A DNA stretch of 64,000 nucleotides from a virus: IMG/VR virus record IMGVR_UViG_3300017963_002783, positions 5,471-69,470 of that record. The stretch is one strand, 5' to 3'. Of the stretch, positions 4,979 through 61,141 are shown piece after piece; within the stretch, counting starts at the first letter, position 1, and every line of letters starts with the position of its first letter. A program made the translations under genes and the position numbers. The notes under the pieces are model-generated. The model did no database searches. It was not told the DNA's origin and worked only from the letters and a program-made list of their open reading frames with translations.

Positions 4979-5994
4979 CGATTCTCGTATCGGCGGCAGG
5001 AGCACCCGGAACCTACACCCTTATTAAGAAGCTCAAGGAAGACGTTCCGGATATTCGGATTATAGCCTGTGACATGCAGGAAGAAGTGGCGGCGAAGTTC
5101 ATTGCGGACGCTTACTATCAGGTTCCGCTGGCAGAATCGGCGCAATATCTTCCAGACCTTTGTGCCATTTTCGCAATGGAAAAGGTAGACGTTTTCTTTC
5201 CCACATCGAGTGCCGAGGTGCCGAAGGTAAGCAGGGAGAAGGACTTCATTGAACAGAGCGGCGTAAAGGTTCTAGTGTCCGACATCTATGGCATCAAAAT
5301 GGCCACAGATAAAGGCTACCTGTATTCAATACTGGAAAATTATGTCCCTGTCCCCAAGGTTTGTGAATCTGTTACGTGGGGACAGTTCGAAATACTCGCT
5401 CATCATTTGGGCTATCCTGACAAGAAAGTCTGCTTTAAGCCCCCCATATCCAAGGGGAGCCGAGGGTTTCGGATCATAGATGCCAAGGTTGACACGAAAA
5501 ACCAGATGCTCAGAAAGAAGCCCGGGGAGTGCCTTTCGGTCAGCATGAATCAGGTCAAGGAGTGGTTCGGGGACGACAGGTTCCTCCCCCAACTGCTTCT
5601 CATGGAATACGTCGAGGGTCCCGCTTACGACTGCATGGTCTTGGCCCACAACGGCAAGGCCCTCTTGACGACCGTCAAGACCAGGGAAAAGGAACGCTGG
5701 GGCATTATTACGGAAGGGGAGTTGATAGAAAGCCCGTCACATGTGAAGATGTGTTCCGCAATCGTTCGGGAACTCAACCTGTCGTACAACGTCAGCATCC
5801 AGTTCATAGGGGACACGCTGATAGAGGTTAACCCTCGCACCTCCACCTATATCTACGGGGACGACTTCAACGAGCCGTGGCTTGCCATACAGCTTGCCAT
5901 GGGCTGGATAACGGAAGAGGAAGTTATGGCCTATCAGGACAAAGTGCCCATAGGTCGCCGCATGGTCAGGTATATGGACCAAATATTTTATTGA
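4963..5994 (+). CDS. ATP-grasp ligase of polysaccharide-cluster type
   Basis: KPPISKGSRG, LLMEYVEG and IEVNPR ATP-grasp motifs. Confidence 0.85.
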   Translation: MLPRLTILVSAAGAPGTYTLIKKLKEDVPDIRIIACDMQEEVAAKFIADAYYQVPLAESAQYLPDLCAIFAMEKVDVFFPTSSAEVPKVSREKDFIEQSGVKVLVSDIYGIKMATDKGYLYSILENYVPVPKVCESVTWGQFEILAHHLGYPDKKVCFKPPISKGSRGFRIIDAKVDTKNQMLRKKPGECLSVSMNQVKEWFGDDRFLPQLLLMEYVEGPAYDCMVLAHNGKALLTTVKTREKERWGIITEGELIESPSHVKMCSAIVRELNLSYNVSIQFIGDTLIEVNPRTSTYIYGDDFNEPWLAIQLAMGWITEEEVMAYQDKVPIGRRMVRYMDQIFY

Positions 5995-55771: not shown

Positions 55772-55880
55772 ACGGAGGTATACCTCGTCACACAGGAGAA
55801 AACCAAACAGCCTAATGCTCTTCCCCACTGCGCCCATATTTGGTAAAACTCCCCTCAAAAACAGAGAGGGGGAAATCAAC

Positions 55881-56939
55881 ATGAAGGGGAATATCTACTG
55901 GAGATTCGGGAAGCCGATTGTCAGATTCAAGGGGGTTTACAAGACTTGCCAATCATTGCAAGAGGCCGAGAGGGTTCTGACGGGCCTGAGATTCAAAGAG
56001 GATGAGGGGACATTTGATGTCAGGGATTATCAAAAAGACCAGCCGTTGGGGTTTGAAAATCTTGGAAAGCATTGGGTGGATATTCGGAGGGATGACGTGC
56101 GCTGCATCCGAAATCTTAACTACCATATCCGGCTTGCTTCAGCTTTTTTCGGGAATCGGAATGTCAAGGAGATCGGATATGCCGAGCTTGAGGACTTTTT
56201 ACGGTCCCTGCCGGCCAAACTGTCCGCTAAGAGCAAAAAAAATATCTTCACAACGCTTCATACCTTTTGGGGATGGGTACACAAAAGATACAAATTTCCC
56301 ATCCCCGAATTTCCCCAAATCAAATTTGAACTCAACTGGCGAAACACGGTTGACAAGGAGACTCAAGCCAGAATCATCGAGGAAGTCAAGCGGATCTCCT
56401 ACCACATCAACCCGAAAATCTGGATAGGAATAAAGTGGCTGGCAACCTATATCAGCATCCGGCCGATAGAGCTTATCAACATCAAGGAGGGGGATTTCGA
56501 TCTCTCGCTGGGAGTCGTCAATGTTAGATACAATAAGGAAAATAAGTCTAAAATTGTTCCTTTATTGGATGAGGATATTGAACTGGCTAAGTCTTTTCCC
56601 CAGGCCTTGCCTAGTGTTTACTTTTTTCGACATGGGCGCAGAAAAGGCGTCGCTCGTAGGCATAGGCACAGATTCGGAAAAGACTATCTATATTCTTGGT
56701 GGAGAATCGCTTGCAAAAATTGTGGAGTGGATGGAGTTGACCTGTATGGAGGGACAAGGCATTCCTCAGTACGAGCCCTTAGAGAAAGATTCACACCCGA
56801 CCAAATAAAGAAGGCCACCATGCACCACACCAATGCTGCGTTTGAGCGGTATTACCAGATAGAATTGGAGGACACCAGGAAGGTGTATCGGGGAACGACG
56901 CAGAAGGGGGAAGTGGTAGAGATGAGGAAGGCAAAATGA
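55881..56939 (+). CDS. Tyrosine recombinase / phage integrase
   Basis: IRPIEL (R), K....VPL, TRHS, MHH and ERYY (Tyr); a tRNA 3' end lies downstream. Confidence 0.88.
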   Translation: MKGNIYWRFGKPIVRFKGVYKTCQSLQEAERVLTGLRFKEDEGTFDVRDYQKDQPLGFENLGKHWVDIRRDDVRCIRNLNYHIRLASAFFGNRNVKEIGYAELEDFLRSLPAKLSAKSKKNIFTTLHTFWGWVHKRYKFPIPEFPQIKFELNWRNTVDKETQARIIEEVKRISYHINPKIWIGIKWLATYISIRPIELINIKEGDFDLSLGVVNVRYNKENKSKIVPLLDEDIELAKSFPQALPSVYFFRHGRRKGVARRHRHRFGKDYLYSWWRIACKNCGVDGVDLYGGTRHSSVRALRERFTPDQIKKATMHHTNAAFERYYQIELEDTRKVYRGTTQKGEVVEMRKAK

Positions 56940-57697
56940 AAAAGACCTCTATTGGCAATCGAATGAAAGAAAATTACGAAAATCGGTATCGAATGAAACT
57001 AACAAGGCGTACCCCCGTTATCATTCGATTAGATGGTAAAGCCTTCCATACCCTTACAAGGAGATGTGAAAAACCTTTTGATATTACATTCGCAACTTTC
57101 ATGCATACAACTGGTCTATACCTTTGCGAACATATTCAAGGTGCGAAATGTGCATATATTCAATCAGATGAAATATCAATTCTTTTAATTGATTTTGACA
57201 AGCTAACTACAGAGGCATGGTTTGATTATAATATCCAAAAAATCGTGTCTATCAGTGCGGCAATGGCATCAGCTATCTTTAGTTCTCGGTTTGGGCATTT
57301 AGCTTTTTTTGATTCACGGGCCTTTAACATCCCAAAAGATGAACTTTGTAATTATTTCATTTGGAGACAAAAGGATTGGGAGCGCAATTCTATTCAAATG
57401 CTTGCCCAAGCGTACTTTTCAACAAAGCAACTTCATAAGAAAAGCGGTTCTGATATGCACCAAATGTTACATGAGAAGGGAGCAAATTGGGCTAACTTAG
57501 ACTTGCTTTGGAAAAATGGGTGGTTTATTTGGAAAACAAACGAAGAATGGCTTCAAAATGCTGCTCCAATTTTTACCCAAGAAAGACAATATATTGAAAG
57601 ATATCTTTACCCAAATTCCACACAAGGAATTTGTGGGGGAGATAACATGCAAAGCCTTGAAAAAACAGGCATAAGTGGTGCGGAAGGCGGGACTTGA
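56936..57697 (+). CDS. Thg1-like protein (tRNA-His guanylyltransferase / 3'-5' polymerase)
   Basis: RMKENYE, IRLDGKAFH, YIQSDEISILL, FDSRAF, YFIWRQKD.RNSI. Confidence 0.92.
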   Translation: MKKTSIGNRMKENYENRYRMKLTRRTPVIIRLDGKAFHTLTRRCEKPFDITFATFMHTTGLYLCEHIQGAKCAYIQSDEISILLIDFDKLTTEAWFDYNIQKIVSISAAMASAIFSSRFGHLAFFDSRAFNIPKDELCNYFIWRQKDWERNSIQMLAQAYFSTKQLHKKSGSDMHQMLHEKGANWANLDLLWKNGWFIWKTNEEWLQNAAPIFTQERQYIERYLYPNSTQGICGGDNMQSLEKTGISGAEGGT

Positions 57698-57793: not shown

Positions 57794-58158
57794 ATGACAC
57801 CACAACAACGTAAGCAGGGAGGGGTGGATGAGTAAAGTTTATTGTAAAGATTGCTTGTATGTGACCGATGGATATGGCCAGCATGTTTGCGGTCACCCAC
57901 AGAATAGGAAAAAGCGGGATACCTCTTATGAAATGTATGAATATAGGCCATCTATAGCAGATGTAAATGAAAAAAACAATTGCCGCCTATTTGAGTCTAA
58001 AATTCATAGTAAGTAACTAGTGGGGAAATGGTTCATGACACCACAACAACGTGAGCAAGGAGGGGAGATATGTTACCTGAATCATGTGAAGAACTAGAGA
58101 AAGAACATCAAGGCGAAGAAACGGAAAAGATACCCATGACACCACAACAACGTGAGCA
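57794..58158 (+). repeat. Three copies of ATGACACCACAACAACGT(A/G)AGCA
   Basis: Copies start at 57794, 58035 and 58136. Confidence 0.9.
57828..58016 (+). CDS. Small Cys-rich protein
   Basis: CKDC...C...C; RBS GGAGG. Confidence 0.55.
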   Translation: MSKVYCKDCLYVTDGYGQHVCGHPQNRKKRDTSYEMYEYRPSIADVNEKNNCRLFESKIHSK

Positions 58159-58264
58159 CAAACGGCAGAAGATTAAGGAACTCCGCCAATTAATAGAGCA
58201 TACAGCAAGTCCAACAGCAAAAATAGTCCTTCAGGAAATGATAGATGAGATGGAGGAGGAATGA
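58070..58264 (+). CDS. Hypothetical protein
   Basis: RBS AAGGAGG; ATGA coupling with the next gene. Confidence 0.5.
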   Translation: MLPESCEELEKEHQGEETEKIPMTPQQREHKRQKIKELRQLIEHTASPTAKIVLQEMIDEMEEE

Positions 58265-58824
58265 CCATAGATAGCGGTGATGATGCAAGGGTAGCATATC
58301 CTTTGTTCCAAAAGGAATACGGCGGTTCGACTCCGACCTCACCGCTCCAAATGAAAGTGGTTAAAATTTCTCAAAAGAAGGCTTTGGGACTCAACAAACT
58401 ATGGCACAGCGTTTTACCTGAGATCGTCAATTATTGGCATTGTCGTTGTTATGGTGCATTTTGGGAGAATAAATACTTTGCTGTCGCAATGTGGTCTTTA
58501 CCGATTGCAAGGCGATTGAATTGGAGTGGGGCTTATGAGTTAAGGCGTTTTGCAATTTCTCCTGATGCGCCCCCAAATACGGCATCTTGGATGATGGCTA
58601 TAATGGCCCGACTTATCAAAAAGGCAAAACCTGAAATAACAAAACTTATTTCCTATCAAGATACATCAGTCCATCAAGGAACAATCTATAAAGCAAGTGG
58701 TTGGCACCCTGTTCTTCAAGGCAAAGGGGATGGAATTGGTTGGGGTCAAGGCTGGGCTTCAAGAGATAGGGCAAAACAGATAGCCACTGGAGATAAAATC
58801 AGATGGGAGAAAAATGTTGGGTGA
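58261..58824 (+). CDS. Mom-like GNAT DNA-adenine modification protein
   Basis: YELRRFAI..DAP.NTASW and LISYQD..VHQGTIYKASGW match the Mom-family pattern; alternative in-frame ATG at 58351. Confidence 0.75.
   Translation: MTIDSGDDARVAYPLFQKEYGGSTPTSPLQMKVVKISQKKALGLNKLWHSVLPEIVNYWHCRCYGAFWENKYFAVAMWSLPIARRLNWSGAYELRRFAISPDAPPNTASWMMAIMARLIKKAKPEITKLISYQDTSVHQGTIYKASGWHPVLQGKGDGIGWGQGWASRDRAKQIATGDKIRWEKNVG
58274..58349 (+). tRNA. Atypical tRNA-Gly(UCC)-like element within the mom-like 5' end
   Basis: 76 nt cloverleaf: GCGGTGA/TCACCGC acceptor, U73, CCA, D arm ATGC/GCAT, TTCGACT T-loop, TCC anticodon in an 8 nt loop. Confidence 0.7.
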
Positions 58825-58893: not shown

Positions 58894-59088
58894 ATGATTA
58901 TGACACGACTCCAGGAGCTTGAGCGTATCATCCAAATCAAGCAGCAAGTCATTGATTATTTCATGGGAATCCTTGAGGAGAATTATCCTGAAACGCATTA
59001 CATCCTGGCGCAAATCAGGCGAAGCCGGGATGAGATTTCGAAGTGCGAACACGAAAGGCATAAACTGGTGACGATGGGTATTGCATGA
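58894..59088 (+). CDS. Hypothetical protein
   Basis: Coupled to the helicase start (ATGA). Confidence 0.5.
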   Translation: MIMTRLQELERIIQIKQQVIDYFMGILEENYPETHYILAQIRRSRDEISKCEHERHKLVTMGIA

Positions 59089-60422
59089 CCACCGAACTTA
59101 GGGTCCCTCCACAGAATACAGACGCCGAACAAGCTCTGCTCGGAGCCTGCTTTATCAACCCGTCCATCATCCCCTCCATAGACCTCCCCCCTGAAGCATT
59201 CTACAAGGAAGCCCACCAGCACATCTTCAAAGCCCTGCAAGACCGGAAAGACAAGGCCGATCTTGTCACCGTGGGCCAATGGCTTAAAGAGAAAGACCTC
59301 CTTGAGAAGTGTGGGGGCATGGACTACCTCGTCAGCCTGGAGGATTGTGTTCCGACAAGTGCGGGATGGAGGACTCATCGAGAGATAATTGATAAAGCCC
59401 ACAAGGAACGCCAATTTGTGGCAGCCTGCGCTTTAGCCCAAGAGAAACTTTACAACCATCAAGGAACTTTGGGCGACATTTCTTCCACTCTGCAATCCGA
59501 GTTGGTCAACATTGAAATCGGGGACCCTTTCAGCCAAAAGACAGGCGTGGACATAGCTAATGTGTATGATGCTGAAAGATGCCTCGAGTCCTACAGGGAA
59601 TACATCAAGACCTTAAAACAGAATCGGTTTATCACTGGGATCCACGAAATAGACAAACGTATCCGGGGAGTGAGCGGTGGCGAAGTGCTGTTCATTCTGG
59701 CCCGGGGCGGAACGTTCAAAACGGCTATCCTTCAAAATCTTCTCAAAAACTACGTCAATAACTCTGCCTGGGGTGCCACATTTTTTTCTATCGAAATGCC
59801 CGTGGCATCCCTGACTGAACGATACCATGAAATTGTGCAAGGCTCCCCTGGAAAGGATATCGAGGACTATTACACGGCCGATTTTGGGGAGGCCGGCACG
59901 TACCTAGAGGGACTAGAAAAGGAATTCAAGGCGGAACTCAGAAACCTGTTCATTGTGGATGCCAATGTGTCTGTCAAAGATATTATCGCGTATGTCCACC
60001 TCATTCAGCATAAAAAAGACATAAAAATAGGGGTGATCGGCATTGACTACCTTGGACTCATGGAGGGCGAGGGTCGTGGAGAGTACGAAATCATCTCAGG
60101 ACTTGCTAAAAACATGAAGAACCTGGCAAGGACGCTCAATATCCCTGTAGTCGTTATTGGCCAGACGTCCCGGAAAGCCGGCAGCGGAGATATGGAAATC
60201 ACCCTGGACATGGGCCGCGGTTCTGGCGTCATTGAAGAGGCCGCTGATGTCATGCTAGGCCTTTGGCAACAGGACCGGGAGTTAATCTGTAAAATCCTCA
60301 AGAATCGCAAGGGACCGAAAAACTCCAGGTGGATAATAGATCTTGATCCTGAAAATCTACGCCTCGGAGAATCGGCCAGGAAATGGGAACCAAAGAAGAA
60401 GGGCTCAGGCATTGAAGCATGA
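59085..60422 (+). CDS. dnaB: DnaB-like replicative helicase
   Basis: PPQN..AEQALLG, ARGGTFKT (Walker A), FSIEM, IDYLGL, GSGVIEEAAD, KNRKGP. Confidence 0.92.
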   Translation: MTTELRVPPQNTDAEQALLGACFINPSIIPSIDLPPEAFYKEAHQHIFKALQDRKDKADLVTVGQWLKEKDLLEKCGGMDYLVSLEDCVPTSAGWRTHREIIDKAHKERQFVAACALAQEKLYNHQGTLGDISSTLQSELVNIEIGDPFSQKTGVDIANVYDAERCLESYREYIKTLKQNRFITGIHEIDKRIRGVSGGEVLFILARGGTFKTAILQNLLKNYVNNSAWGATFFSIEMPVASLTERYHEIVQGSPGKDIEDYYTADFGEAGTYLEGLEKEFKAELRNLFIVDANVSVKDIIAYVHLIQHKKDIKIGVIGIDYLGLMEGEGRGEYEIISGLAKNMKNLARTLNIPVVVIGQTSRKAGSGDMEITLDMGRGSGVIEEAADVMLGLWQQDRELICKILKNRKGPKNSRWIIDLDPENLRLGESARKWEPKKKGSGIEA

Positions 60423-61141
60423 AAAACCCTTGGAGGGAAATGTCGAAAATCAATCCCCAGACCGAAAACGGCCACCGAAGAATAGCCAGCGACGTTTTAG
60501 CTGCCCTTATAAAGCAGGGTATGACAGGAGCGGAATGGGCTGTGTGTATGACGGTGATAGATAAAACTTATGGTTTCGGTAAGTTATCGGACCAAATAAG
60601 CCTCACTCAATTTCAGGTAGCTACCGGACTTTCCAGGCAAGGAGTGATGAAAGCAATCAAGTCGCTAGGCAACCAGCGTTGCCTAGTAGGCAACCACAGT
60701 TGCCTACCTACCGAATATCTCTTTAATAAACACTATGATACGTGGATCGCGGGTAGGCAACCACAGTTGCCTATAGGCAACCACAGTATACATCAGCTAG
60801 GCAACCACAGTGTACCCACAAAAGAAAGAAGAATAGAAAAGATATATATAGATGACAAAATCCCAAACTGCCCCCATCAGAAGATCATCGACCTTTACCA
60901 CGAAACCCTACCCGAACTCCGTACAGTCCGAATATGGAATGACAATCGAAAACGTCTCTTAGCTTCCAGGTGGAAGGAAAGCAAGAAACGCCAGAGCCTG
61001 GAATGGTGGAAGGGTTTTTTTGAGTATGTGAAAGATTCCCCTTTCCTGATGGGAAGGAAAACTGACTTTGAGGCAGACCTTGAATGGCTTATCCGGCCTC
61101 AGAATTTTGCTAAAGTTGTGGAGGGTAAATACCACAAATGA
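60419..61141 (+). CDS. Lambda O-like replication initiator
   Basis: PQTENG..RI, KTYGF.K..D.ISLTQF and FNKHYDTW; contains iterons. Confidence 0.85.
   Translation: MKNPWREMSKINPQTENGHRRIASDVLAALIKQGMTGAEWAVCMTVIDKTYGFGKLSDQISLTQFQVATGLSRQGVMKAIKSLGNQRCLVGNHSCLPTEYLFNKHYDTWIAGRQPQLPIGNHSIHQLGNHSVPTKERRIEKIYIDDKIPNCPHQKIIDLYHETLPELRTVRIWNDNRKRLLASRWKESKKRQSLEWWKGFFEYVKDSPFLMGRKTDFEADLEWLIRPQNFAKVVEGKYHK
60666..60850. repeat. Replication origin: five iterons plus an A/T-rich tract
   Basis: TAGGCAAC-N4-GTTGCCTA at 60666, 60687 and 60754; partial copies at 60774 and 60798; then AAAGAAAGAAGAATAGAAAAGATATATATA. Confidence 0.85.

Follow-up and report, generated by a model that had tools for sequence, protein, structure and literature searches.

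In the 64,000-nt window analysed here (positions 5,471 to 69,470 of the 69,470-bp phage contig IMGVR_UViG_3300017963_002783), an open reading frame (ORF) for a relative of Mom, the DNA modification enzyme of phage Mu, carries within its 5' end a complete tRNA-Gly(UCC)-like cloverleaf of 76 nt, which is read in frame as part of the protein. Comparison with related loci indicates that this cloverleaf is kept by selection as an RNA and that the same bases are also translated into a peptide under purifying selection. It belongs to a large family of non-canonical, phage-borne tRNA-Gly(UCC)-like genes that travel with Mom genes, and it is judged moderately probable that the element acts as a private, non-ribosomal glycyl donor for the linked enzyme. 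This reading is considered the best one because Mu Mom has been published as an enzyme that uses Gly-tRNAGly: it moves glycine from Gly-tRNAGly to adenine N6 in double-stranded DNA, accepts all three Escherichia coli tRNAGly isoacceptors and rejects Gly-tRNAAla (PMC13219725). The original prediction, made from the letters of the window alone, had named Gly-tRNAGly as the reported donor of Mom, and this agrees with the printed record.

The cloverleaf within the mom-like gene

All parts of the cloverleaf that the original prediction had listed, its in-frame reading by ORF 58261-58824 (as ...GGSTPTSPLQ) and a second in-frame ATG at 58351 are present in the sequence as claimed (Table 1). The check with tRNA detection tools suggested there had a divided outcome. 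ARAGORN calls exactly 58274-58349, its sole tRNA call in the whole contig, and labels it 'tRNA-???' with a two-base anticodon '(tc)' because the loop has eight bases. The Rfam model RF00005 aligns with the element from end to end at 28.4 bits (E 0.0027) and thereby just misses its gathering score of 29. The single-sequence fold has an energy of -27 kcal/mol (z = -2.66), a level that 2 of 200 shuffles also attain; taken alone, this is weak evidence.

A protein search for homologous loci returned 744 relatives, the best 120 of which cover 92-100% of the 187 residues with the N-terminus included. The best 80 of 238 viral loci were analysed together with 17 loci from genome bins (Bacteroidota, Planctomycetota, Verrucomicrobiota, Lentisphaerota, Pseudomonadota, Actinomycetota and others), and the contigs that contain the tRNA-like element are assigned by binning to at least six bacterial phyla. 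Of 101 sequences, the window and 41 loci receive a tRNA call from ARAGORN (42 in all), the listed calls lying at the 5' end of the mom match; one extra call, in L028, is an unrelated tRNA-Met. Some homologues with a 7-nt anticodon loop are called tRNA-Gly(tcc), and the Rfam tRNA threshold is passed by 12 of 20 sampled homologous elements (29.6-43.5 bits). Cloverleaf scores of 141 sequences are bimodal, with 98 at 20-21 of 21 pairs, two at 18-19 and 40 at 17 or below, where random windows average 13.3. Among the cultured phages of INPHARED, 32 records match residues 64-148 only, none covers 80% of the protein and no carrier of the fused form was found.

Selection on the RNA fold

Covariation was assessed on an alignment of 84 elements, which omits L094 and L097 (no element), L095 (contig edge), L099 and L100 (partial) and exact duplicates. 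Here, 88.4% of the cells are paired, compared with 37.9-47.9% in six slid controls, both sides have changed in 17 of the 21 pairs (269 cells), and the covariation score is 0.401 versus 0.057-0.120 in the controls; none of 500 shuffles matches the observed values. The D and anticodon helices pair at only 82.1% and 76.4% because rows with a 7-nt loop, which carry one additional D-loop base, are out of register in the gapless alignment. Using class-specific registers, 79 distinct elements are paired at 99.5% in the acceptor stem, 99.4% in the D stem, 95.2% in the anticodon stem and 100% in the T stem, percentages that are partly circular since the elements were picked for at least 19 of 21 pairs, which does not apply to the pair types. 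Pairs 4:69 (GC in 45 elements, CG in 31) and 5:68 (CG in 28, AU in 23, UA in 20, GC in 5) swap freely, and the T-stem pairs flanking the bulged A covary. The protein alignment mirrors the first of these exchanges, as 'SGD...TSPL' alternates with 'SAD/CAD/RAD...TSAL' where G4:C69 is swapped to C4:G69. Additionally, where a residue is conserved, the third position of its codon has an entropy of 0.88 bits within the tRNA (n=9) versus 1.60 bits in core residues 31-53 (n=8), with values of 0.0 at F16, 0.2 at T26, 0.44 at G22 and 0.63 at L29; residues 61-150, where the gapless register fails past indels, do not enter this comparison. The original prediction turned on conservation of the cloverleaf and not of the peptide alone, and the compensatory changes in 17 of 21 pairs across the 84 elements uphold it.

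The view that selection acts on the peptide only and that the cloverleaf is a by-product of codon choice is the least credible of all explanations considered and was rejected, as the covariation counts contradict it. It can point to the purifying selection that is seen where the fold is gone and to an SP-x-Q-L motif conserved in tRNA-less lineages. On the other side, the Watson-Crick-preserving double changes in those 17 pairs alter amino acids (SGD...SPL versus SAD...SAL), the GC in the codon of residue 5 (G1 and C2) is fixed even though the residue itself may be S, C, R or G, residues 6-21 are modelled with low confidence (see below), and free-standing copies of the element exist that are not translated.

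Translation of the same bases

The tRNA can be read through in the Mom frame in 84 of 85 distinct rows, and the other two frames hold stops. The exception is L033 (L033:2981-3067), in which the D loop has one base too many with no compensation elsewhere, and the upstream ATG is therefore not in the frame of mom; this could reflect a sequencing error, a broken gene or the use of a TTG after the CCA as start. In 64 of 80 rows, compared with 12 and 5 rows for the other frames, an in-frame ATG is located no more than 27 nt 5' of G1, and it mostly lies 4-13 nt from G1. Furthermore, 24 of 85 rows are devoid of ATG, GTG or TTG at residues 31-45, though residues 44-53 include invariant positions. Changes in loop length respect the frame as well: the additional D-loop nucleotide of the 7-nt-loop variants preserves both total length and frame. 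These variants form at least three separately placed groups on the protein tree; one such row, L071, is the well-supported sister of the 8-nt-loop row L034, and another 7-nt group includes the 8-nt-loop row L017.

Three lineages are without the fold, their cloverleaf scores being near those of random windows. In these, the ratio of nonsynonymous to synonymous polymorphism (pN/pS) is 0.13, 0.26 and 0.12 for residues 9-30 and 0.06, 0.17 and 0.14 for core residues 31-56. The peptides PLFQ and SPLQL stay in these lineages, while synonymous changes have done away with the anticodon, the CCA and the acceptor strand. The SP-x-Q-L end of the peptide, conserved even where there is no tRNA, runs into the first core strand. 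Since synonymous sites are constrained where the fold is present and purifying selection persists where it is absent, the RNA and the peptide readings both appear to be selected. Further variants are known at the protein level alone, namely a form with a 3-aa deletion (P0004 and P0005) and a form with an insert (P0003). In P0003, the 25-aa insert after the tRNA-encoded peptide repeats a degenerate copy of that peptide (RIVMPIF...SPKQM), as though a duplication had allowed the functions of tRNA and peptide to part. A metagenome scan for DNA of P0002-P0005, the closest protein relatives, yielded 4 loci, none of them from the group, and a viral scan with P0003 yielded nothing; the same scan with P0004 returned distant relatives, which were used in the tree.

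The protein tree (IQ-TREE quick mode) comprises 109 distinct cores and has no established root; it omits the partial matches L099, L100, L137 and L139, incomplete or short cores and duplicates. The tRNA is present in 84 cores; in 13 the peptide occurs without it, and 12 lack both. Rows without tRNA are nested within tRNA-bearing ones, as L018 is placed in a well-supported group with L026 and L032, and L097 with L095, and the tRNA-less L073 group adjoins L075, L034 and L071. The most divergent pair, L138/L140 (27-28% identity), also bears the tRNA. Parsimony counts 9 changes of tRNA state, at least 3 of which are forced by well-supported branches. This pattern suggests that the tRNA is ancestral and has been lost repeatedly.

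Glycine identity and non-canonical features

The acceptor pairs 1:72 (G:C), 2:71 (C:G) and 3:70 (G:C) are fixed in 78 of 79 elements each, the discriminator is U in 74 and A in 5, and CCA is encoded in 67. Nearly all of the 79 loops contain the core UUCC (TTCC in the DNA), which is invariant or nearly so in the 84-row alignment, and C35 and C36 are kept in nearly all elements. The determinants of bacterial glycyl-tRNA synthetase (GlyRS) are G1:C72, C2:G71, C35, C36 and U73 (PMC10464925), and every one of them is found in the window element. The discriminator U73 is peculiar to bacterial tRNAGly and tRNACys and occurs in 231,855 of 232,109 bacterial tRNAGly (PMC6097841). The glycine identity attributed to the element by the original prediction is therefore retained in the window and in the family at large (78, 78, nearly all, nearly all and 74 of 79 elements for the five determinants, respectively).

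Elongator tRNAs have, as a general rule, a 7-nt anticodon loop and a regular T stem. The window element conforms neither to the 7-nt loop nor to the 5-bp T stem, and of the 79 family elements, 64 have an anticodon loop of 8 nt and 78 have the bulged A. Because of these departures from elongator tRNAs, and because staphylococci provide a precedent described below, the bulge and the long loop would be expected to impair use by EF-Tu and the ribosome. Nine elements have the T loop TGCAATT, with G at position 55, and a few other T loops share this G; in vitro, GlyRS is tolerant of changes at U55 and G18 (PMC10464925).

Linkage to Mom genes beyond the window

A scan of viral contigs seeded with the T arm only retrieved at least 119 stretches, and 80 loci were examined. 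Open in-frame 5' fusions make up 53 of them, 23 like that of the window (many from contigs of the set above) and 30 with full-length Mu-like Moms, which are undetectable with the window core as query. Another 17 loci have free-standing tRNAs 18-104 nt 3' of the mom gene, two have mom beside the tRNA in a different arrangement, two are cut by a contig end and six have no Mom match in the locus. Altogether, the tRNA is attached or adjacent to a Mom gene in at least 72 of the 80 loci. Seven representative Mu-like fusion ORFs all exceed the Pfam Mom cut-off; six span approximately positions 2-202 of PF25680 at 95-140 bits, and L189 matches positions 64-129 alone at 45.3 bits. The L189 fusion ORF (L189:867-1481, - strand) has a short anticodon loop without UCC and intact acceptor and T arms. 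The 76-nt geometry recurs, with no fewer than 20 of the 21 pairs, in 25 of 28 distinct Mu-like fusions, and in 18 of the 28 an upstream in-frame ATG precedes any stop.

The free-standing copies are dominated by a group of 12 (L155, L158, L169, L172, L176-L179, L182, L197, L218 and L220), located exactly 77 nt past mom and just before terminase-like genes. These tRNAs are 75 nt long, carry the 7-nt loop CAUCCUG (A at position 33) and are enclosed by the inverted repeat ACACGGCA/TGCCGTGT; their acceptor stem has a G3.U70 wobble, the classical alanine mark. In the free-standing copies the Mom frame stops after 6 codons. When 15 whole records with free-standing copies were searched, Mom scored above the Pfam cut-off in 13, including 8 of 8 among those at least 90% complete, compared with none of 14 well-known genomes used as a control. 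Three of the six loci without a Mom match have little room on one side and one has a truncated ORF; the remaining two are a T-arm fragment and L142. In L142 (~558-633, - strand of the locus), the bulged tRNA is a unit of its own, with a perfect TTGACA-17-TATAAT on the 5' side and a hairpin followed by a T run on the 3' side, and a search of its record (83% complete) gave no Mom. L202 (oriented position ~4314) has nothing but the T arm, the CCA and the 3' strand of the acceptor stem, at the 3' end of a ParB-like/methylase-type ORF, and this fragment may be a remnant or an att-like (attachment-site) piece. In L193 (L193:5095-7233), mom is followed by a terminator-like hairpin, the tRNA and then a ParB_N + N6_N4 DNA methylase gene, which leaves the tRNA flanked by two DNA-modification genes.

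These arrangements bear on the choice that the original prediction had offered between a dedicated glycyl donor and a tRNA mimic through which the enzyme controls its own message. A purely cis-acting mimic would never carry glycine, and its fold would throttle or time Mom synthesis through blocked initiation, attraction of RNase P to the message or feedback binding by Mom. The position of the start codon in most rows, 4-13 nt 5' of G1, is well suited to such a role, as it places the folded acceptor stem within the initiation region, and a cut at G1 would part the AUG from the ORF. Regulation of this kind would also have parallels in Mu, where mom is tightly restrained, its untimely expression being toxic (PMC3378877), and where mom translation needs Com, which acts on mRNA structure (PMC6483171). 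However, regulation in cis at the mom start cannot explain the 17 free-standing copies because these lie 3' of mom, where they are unable to control its initiation, whereas a trans-acting partner of Mom can account for them. The promoter-like and terminator-like sites of L142 point in the same direction, as does the retention of C35, C36, U73 and C74 even at synonymous sites, for which a mimic aimed at an enzyme thought to read the 3' end of the tRNA (PMC13219725) would have no need. The donor alternative is thus favoured by the comparative data, in particular by the copies 3' of mom and by L142, and a mimic acting in cis and nothing else is considered unlikely; the donor and cis-regulatory roles are not exclusive.

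Phages often carry tRNAs, and like ordinary phage tRNAs the element has an encoded CCA and many family members that ARAGORN and Rfam detect, the homologues that pass the Rfam threshold and those called tRNA-Gly(tcc) among them. An ordinary tRNA-Gly for codon supply that overlaps its neighbour by chance is still a very unlikely explanation. The family differs from ordinary phage tRNAs by its non-canonical loop and T stem (8-nt loop in 64 and bulge in 78 of 79 elements, G55 in a subset and A33 in the free-standing group), by its single copy, as the sole tRNA of the 69-kb contig, by its overlap with a coding region and by an obligate linkage to one enzyme family, seen in at least 72 of 80 T-arm loci. 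A further alternative is a decoy or counter-defence RNA that soaks up host enzymes or toxins acting on Gly-tRNAGly and has no relation to Mom chemistry. GNAT toxins acting on Gly-tRNAGly exist (TacT, PMC13219725) and the glycine identity marks are kept; the near-obligate linkage to Mom in three gene arrangements is left unexplained, and no co-varying defence or toxin gene was seen, a point on which no systematic search was made. This alternative is regarded as highly improbable.

The Mom-family protein

The product of ORF 58261-58824 is a Mom-family GNAT, as the original prediction had proposed. It matches the Pfam family PF25680 (Mom) at 49.8 bits (cut-off 27.1), with residues 63-149 aligned to profile positions 32-127 of 202, and PHROG 1384 'Mom-like DNA modification protein' at 69.8 bits over residues 30-157. 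An AlphaFold2 (AF2) model built on an alignment of 87 homologues has a mean predicted local distance difference test (pLDDT) score of 82.4 and a predicted template modelling (pTM) score of 0.76. The pLDDT falls below 50 at residues 2-4, 6-21, 155-158 and 163-165, and residues 6-21 are accordingly predicted to be disordered. Foldseek ranks the Mu Mom chains 8bv8_B/A first and second in the PDB (E 1.6e-8, template modelling score 0.61), followed by generic GNATs, with an identity to Mu Mom of ~18% in the structural alignment. The profile of the 87 homologues retrieves the Mu Mom crystal chain 8bv8_A (E 9.7e-7); a single-sequence PDB search gave no Mom and chance nanobody matches only.

Residues R96, S109, D134 and Y143 correspond to the Mu Mom catalytic residues listed in Table 1 and are invariant or nearly so among the 87 homologues. 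The native Mu numbering used here equals the chain index plus 9, as inferred from the D-E-R motif and the position of S124A. For Mu R151, no clear equivalent was found in the profile alignment to 8bv8_A, where H138 adjoins a gap. The helix-turn-helix-like (HTH-like) insertion of Mu Mom (residues ~175-209) is absent from the window protein, which has 44 residues after Y143 and no helix pair there in the model. Because this insertion is missing, the window protein is classed as a short-type relative and not as a Mu-type Mom. The roles of the Mu residues and the essential nature of the insertion are described in PMC13219725.

A proposed private glycyl donor

The following course of events may be inferred for the fused genes. 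Host tRNA-processing enzymes would cut part of the mom transcript at the tRNA ends, and host GlyRS would glycylate the released 76-mer. This 76-mer would then serve as a private glycyl donor from which Mom transfers glycine to adenine N6 of phage DNA, as Mu Mom does. The 8-nt loop and the bulged T stem would exclude the molecule from EF-Tu and the ribosome, so that it would not compete with translation. As excision parts the start codon from the ORF, each transcript would be either translated or made into donor, and this either-or fate would also limit the level of a potentially toxic enzyme. In its stronger form the proposal describes a bifunctional mom transcript, in which the same 76 nt provide the N-terminal peptide of the enzyme and a private, ribosome-shy tRNAGly consumed by it, both readings being maintained by selection in hundreds of phages, and in which the overlap sets the ratio of enzyme to donor; this extension is put forward tentatively, with confidence somewhat short of even.

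Several points weigh against the donor reading. Mu Mom works with all host tRNAGly isoacceptors, which would render a private donor chemically unnecessary (PMC13219725). No RNA sequencing run was listed that contains the stretch, which is present in two DNA metagenome runs, possibly its source. Where tRNA and ORF are fused, cutting out the tRNA would sacrifice the message, a peculiar means of providing a cofactor. The window element scores below the Rfam cut-off, as do 8 of 20 sampled homologues, and ARAGORN calls a tRNA in fewer than half of the sequences (42 of 101). The fold is missing from 25 of 109 distinct cores while the enzyme has stayed, which shows that the tRNA is dispensable in some settings. 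The peptide, and not the RNA, could account for part of the sequence conservation. Finally, the activity of the window protein may differ from that of Mu Mom, for which the missing HTH-like insertion is essential.

Organization of the locus

Table 1. Features of the tRNA-mom locus in the 64,000-nt window.
Feature	Position in window	Strand	Remarks
76-nt tRNA-Gly(UCC)-like cloverleaf	58274-58349	+	codons 5-30 (ORF bases 14-89) of the mom-like ORF; ARAGORN, Rfam, covariation
Acceptor stem GCGGTGA / TCACCGC	58274-58280 / 58339-58345	+	
D stem ATGC/GCAT	58283-58286 / 58294-58297	+	
Anticodon stem TCCTT/AAGGA	58299-58303 / 58312-58316	+	
8-nt anticodon loop TGTTCCAA	58304-58311	+	
Anticodon-like UCC (U34 C35 C36)	58307-58309	+	U33 at 58306; one extra loop nucleotide
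T stem GGCGG with CCG-A-CC	58321-58325 / 58333-58338	+	T loop TTCGACT
Bulged A	58336	+	between T-stem pairs 51:63 and 50:64
Discriminator U73 (T) and encoded CCA	58346; 58347-58349	+	
Mom-family ORF, 187 aa	58261-58824	+	ATG overlaps stop of upstream ORF (ATGA); stop codon 58822-58824
Shine-Dalgarno-like run GGAGGAGG	58252-58259	+	directly 5' of ATG 58261; read from the sequence
Second in-frame ATG	58351-58353	+	1 base past CCA; candidate start of a 157-aa core protein
R96; S109; D134; Y143	58546-58548; 58585-58587; 58660-58662; 58687-58689	+	equivalent to Mu Mom R111, S124, D149, Y159
Integrase gene	55815-56939	+	ORF list, PHROG integrase match; 1.3 kb 5' of the tRNA-like element
Thg1-like (tRNA-His guanylyltransferase family) gene	56936-57697	+	PF04446 85.5 bits; phrog_4717 275.6 bits
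Three small ORFs	between Thg1-like gene and mom-like ORF	+	
64-aa ORF	58070-58264	+	stop overlaps mom-like start
DnaB-like helicase gene	59085-60422	+	ORF list, family matches
Replication-initiator-like gene	60419-61141	+	ORF list, family matches

Two starts, ATG 58261 and ATG 58351, are possible in the window gene. The Pfam and PHROG profile matches begin near the second, which has no Shine-Dalgarno-like run before it in the sequence and whose equivalent place lacks a start codon in most homologues. If the tRNA were excised, ATG 58351 would be left heading a nearly leaderless message, which is speculation. The overlapping stop and start would make translational coupling between the 64-aa ORF and the mom-like ORF possible; the former matches no Pfam or PHROG family at the thresholds used. 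No promoter-like site was found on the + strand before the tRNA-like element, and promoter and terminator counts just upstream are at the level of shuffled sequence.

The integrase gene upstream of the element, together with the habit of many temperate phages of integrating into tRNA genes, could suggest a remnant or copy of an integration target, that is, an attP-type tRNA sequence for site-specific recombination. This explanation is barely credible and was rejected: a whole tRNA is present whose 5' and 3' halves covary within phages, as is not required of an att site, phage genes lie on both sides, and the same element recurs in contigs binned with at least six bacterial phyla though the tRNAs of these hosts would differ. 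In addition, islands of Dehalococcoides that contain an embedded tRNA-like locus integrate at ssrA and not at that locus (PMC3146451). The Thg1-like gene lies 0.6 kb 5' of the tRNA-mom gene. It was tried as a conserved partner of the pair and rejected, since none of the 140 other loci has a Thg1-like match near mom. The integrase and the upstream and downstream ORFs likewise have no match in these loci, and DnaB-like matches were found in 5.

Relation to known systems and implications

A 76-bp tRNA-Gly-like 'pseudo-tRNA' within the first 150 bp of a mom homologue has been described in the ssrA islands of Dehalococcoides, and the same embedded locus was noted on a marine fosmid, with no function proposed (McMurdie et al. 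2011, PMC3146451). Like the window, these islands have a complete 76-bp cloverleaf in the 5' end of a Mom-homologue ORF, usually mislabelled or missed by annotation. They differ in having a 270-aa Mom homologue on an integrative island with serine recombinases, where the Mom of the window is of the short type (187 aa) and is encoded in a phage replication operon. The 2011 paper predates the Gly-tRNAGly finding, and it presents no cross-family covariation, translation evidence or free-standing copies. In searches of main texts it was the only report found on a tRNA gene fused or adjacent to mom, and the main texts of two Mom papers make no mention of a linked tRNA gene. Such a locus has thus been in print since 2011 without an explanation; as far as these searches reach, neither its functional reading nor the double selection has been published.

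Mu Mom itself (PF25680, 8bv8; Silva et al. 2026, PMC13219725) is related to the window protein by hidden Markov model and by fold, with equivalents of R111, S124, D149 and Y159. Mu has no tRNA gene at mom, uses host isoacceptors and controls mom through Com, C, Dam and OxyR, and the window protein is shorter and without the HTH-like insertion. A functional parallel is the non-proteogenic tRNAGly of Staphylococcus aureus, a staphylococci-only lineage used by FmhB, FemA and FemB, which combines normal GlyRS charging with poor EF-Tu and ribosome interaction and serves tRNA-dependent transferases outside translation (Rietmeyer et al. 2021, PMC7826273). The likeness does not go beyond function: the staphylococcal genes are cellular and free-standing, the acceptor is a peptidoglycan precursor and not DNA, and the deviations lie in D- and T-stem and loop sequences, in contrast to the bulged T stem and 8-nt loop of the window family, for which poor use by EF-Tu would be expected.

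tRNA-like structures in mRNAs and viral RNAs, such as the thrS operator and the 3' ends of plant viruses, also present a tRNA-shaped fold that is read by tRNA-binding enzymes. These are situated in untranslated regions and are partial mimics or 3'-terminal, whereas the window element is a full cloverleaf inside a coding region with free-standing sister copies.

The Mom chemistry published in 2023 and 2026 makes an embedded tRNA-Gly-like locus testable by standard assays, and the family alignment, which shows the positions that are held (acceptor pairs 1-3, U73, CCA, C35, C36 and the bulged A), gives a handle on how Mom recognizes its tRNA. Annotation pipelines systematically miss or mislabel such genes, as ARAGORN detects under half of them here and gene callers simply extend the ORF across them. 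Bases that serve a complete tRNA and a stretch of protein at once offer a clean natural system for the study of overlapping codes and of the choice between processing and translation. If the donor reading is true, tRNA-dependent DNA hypermodification would own a dedicated carrier, like staphylococcal cell-wall synthesis, and under the bifunctional form of the proposal an enzyme and its RNA co-substrate would be written in one stretch of DNA, which would be a first case.

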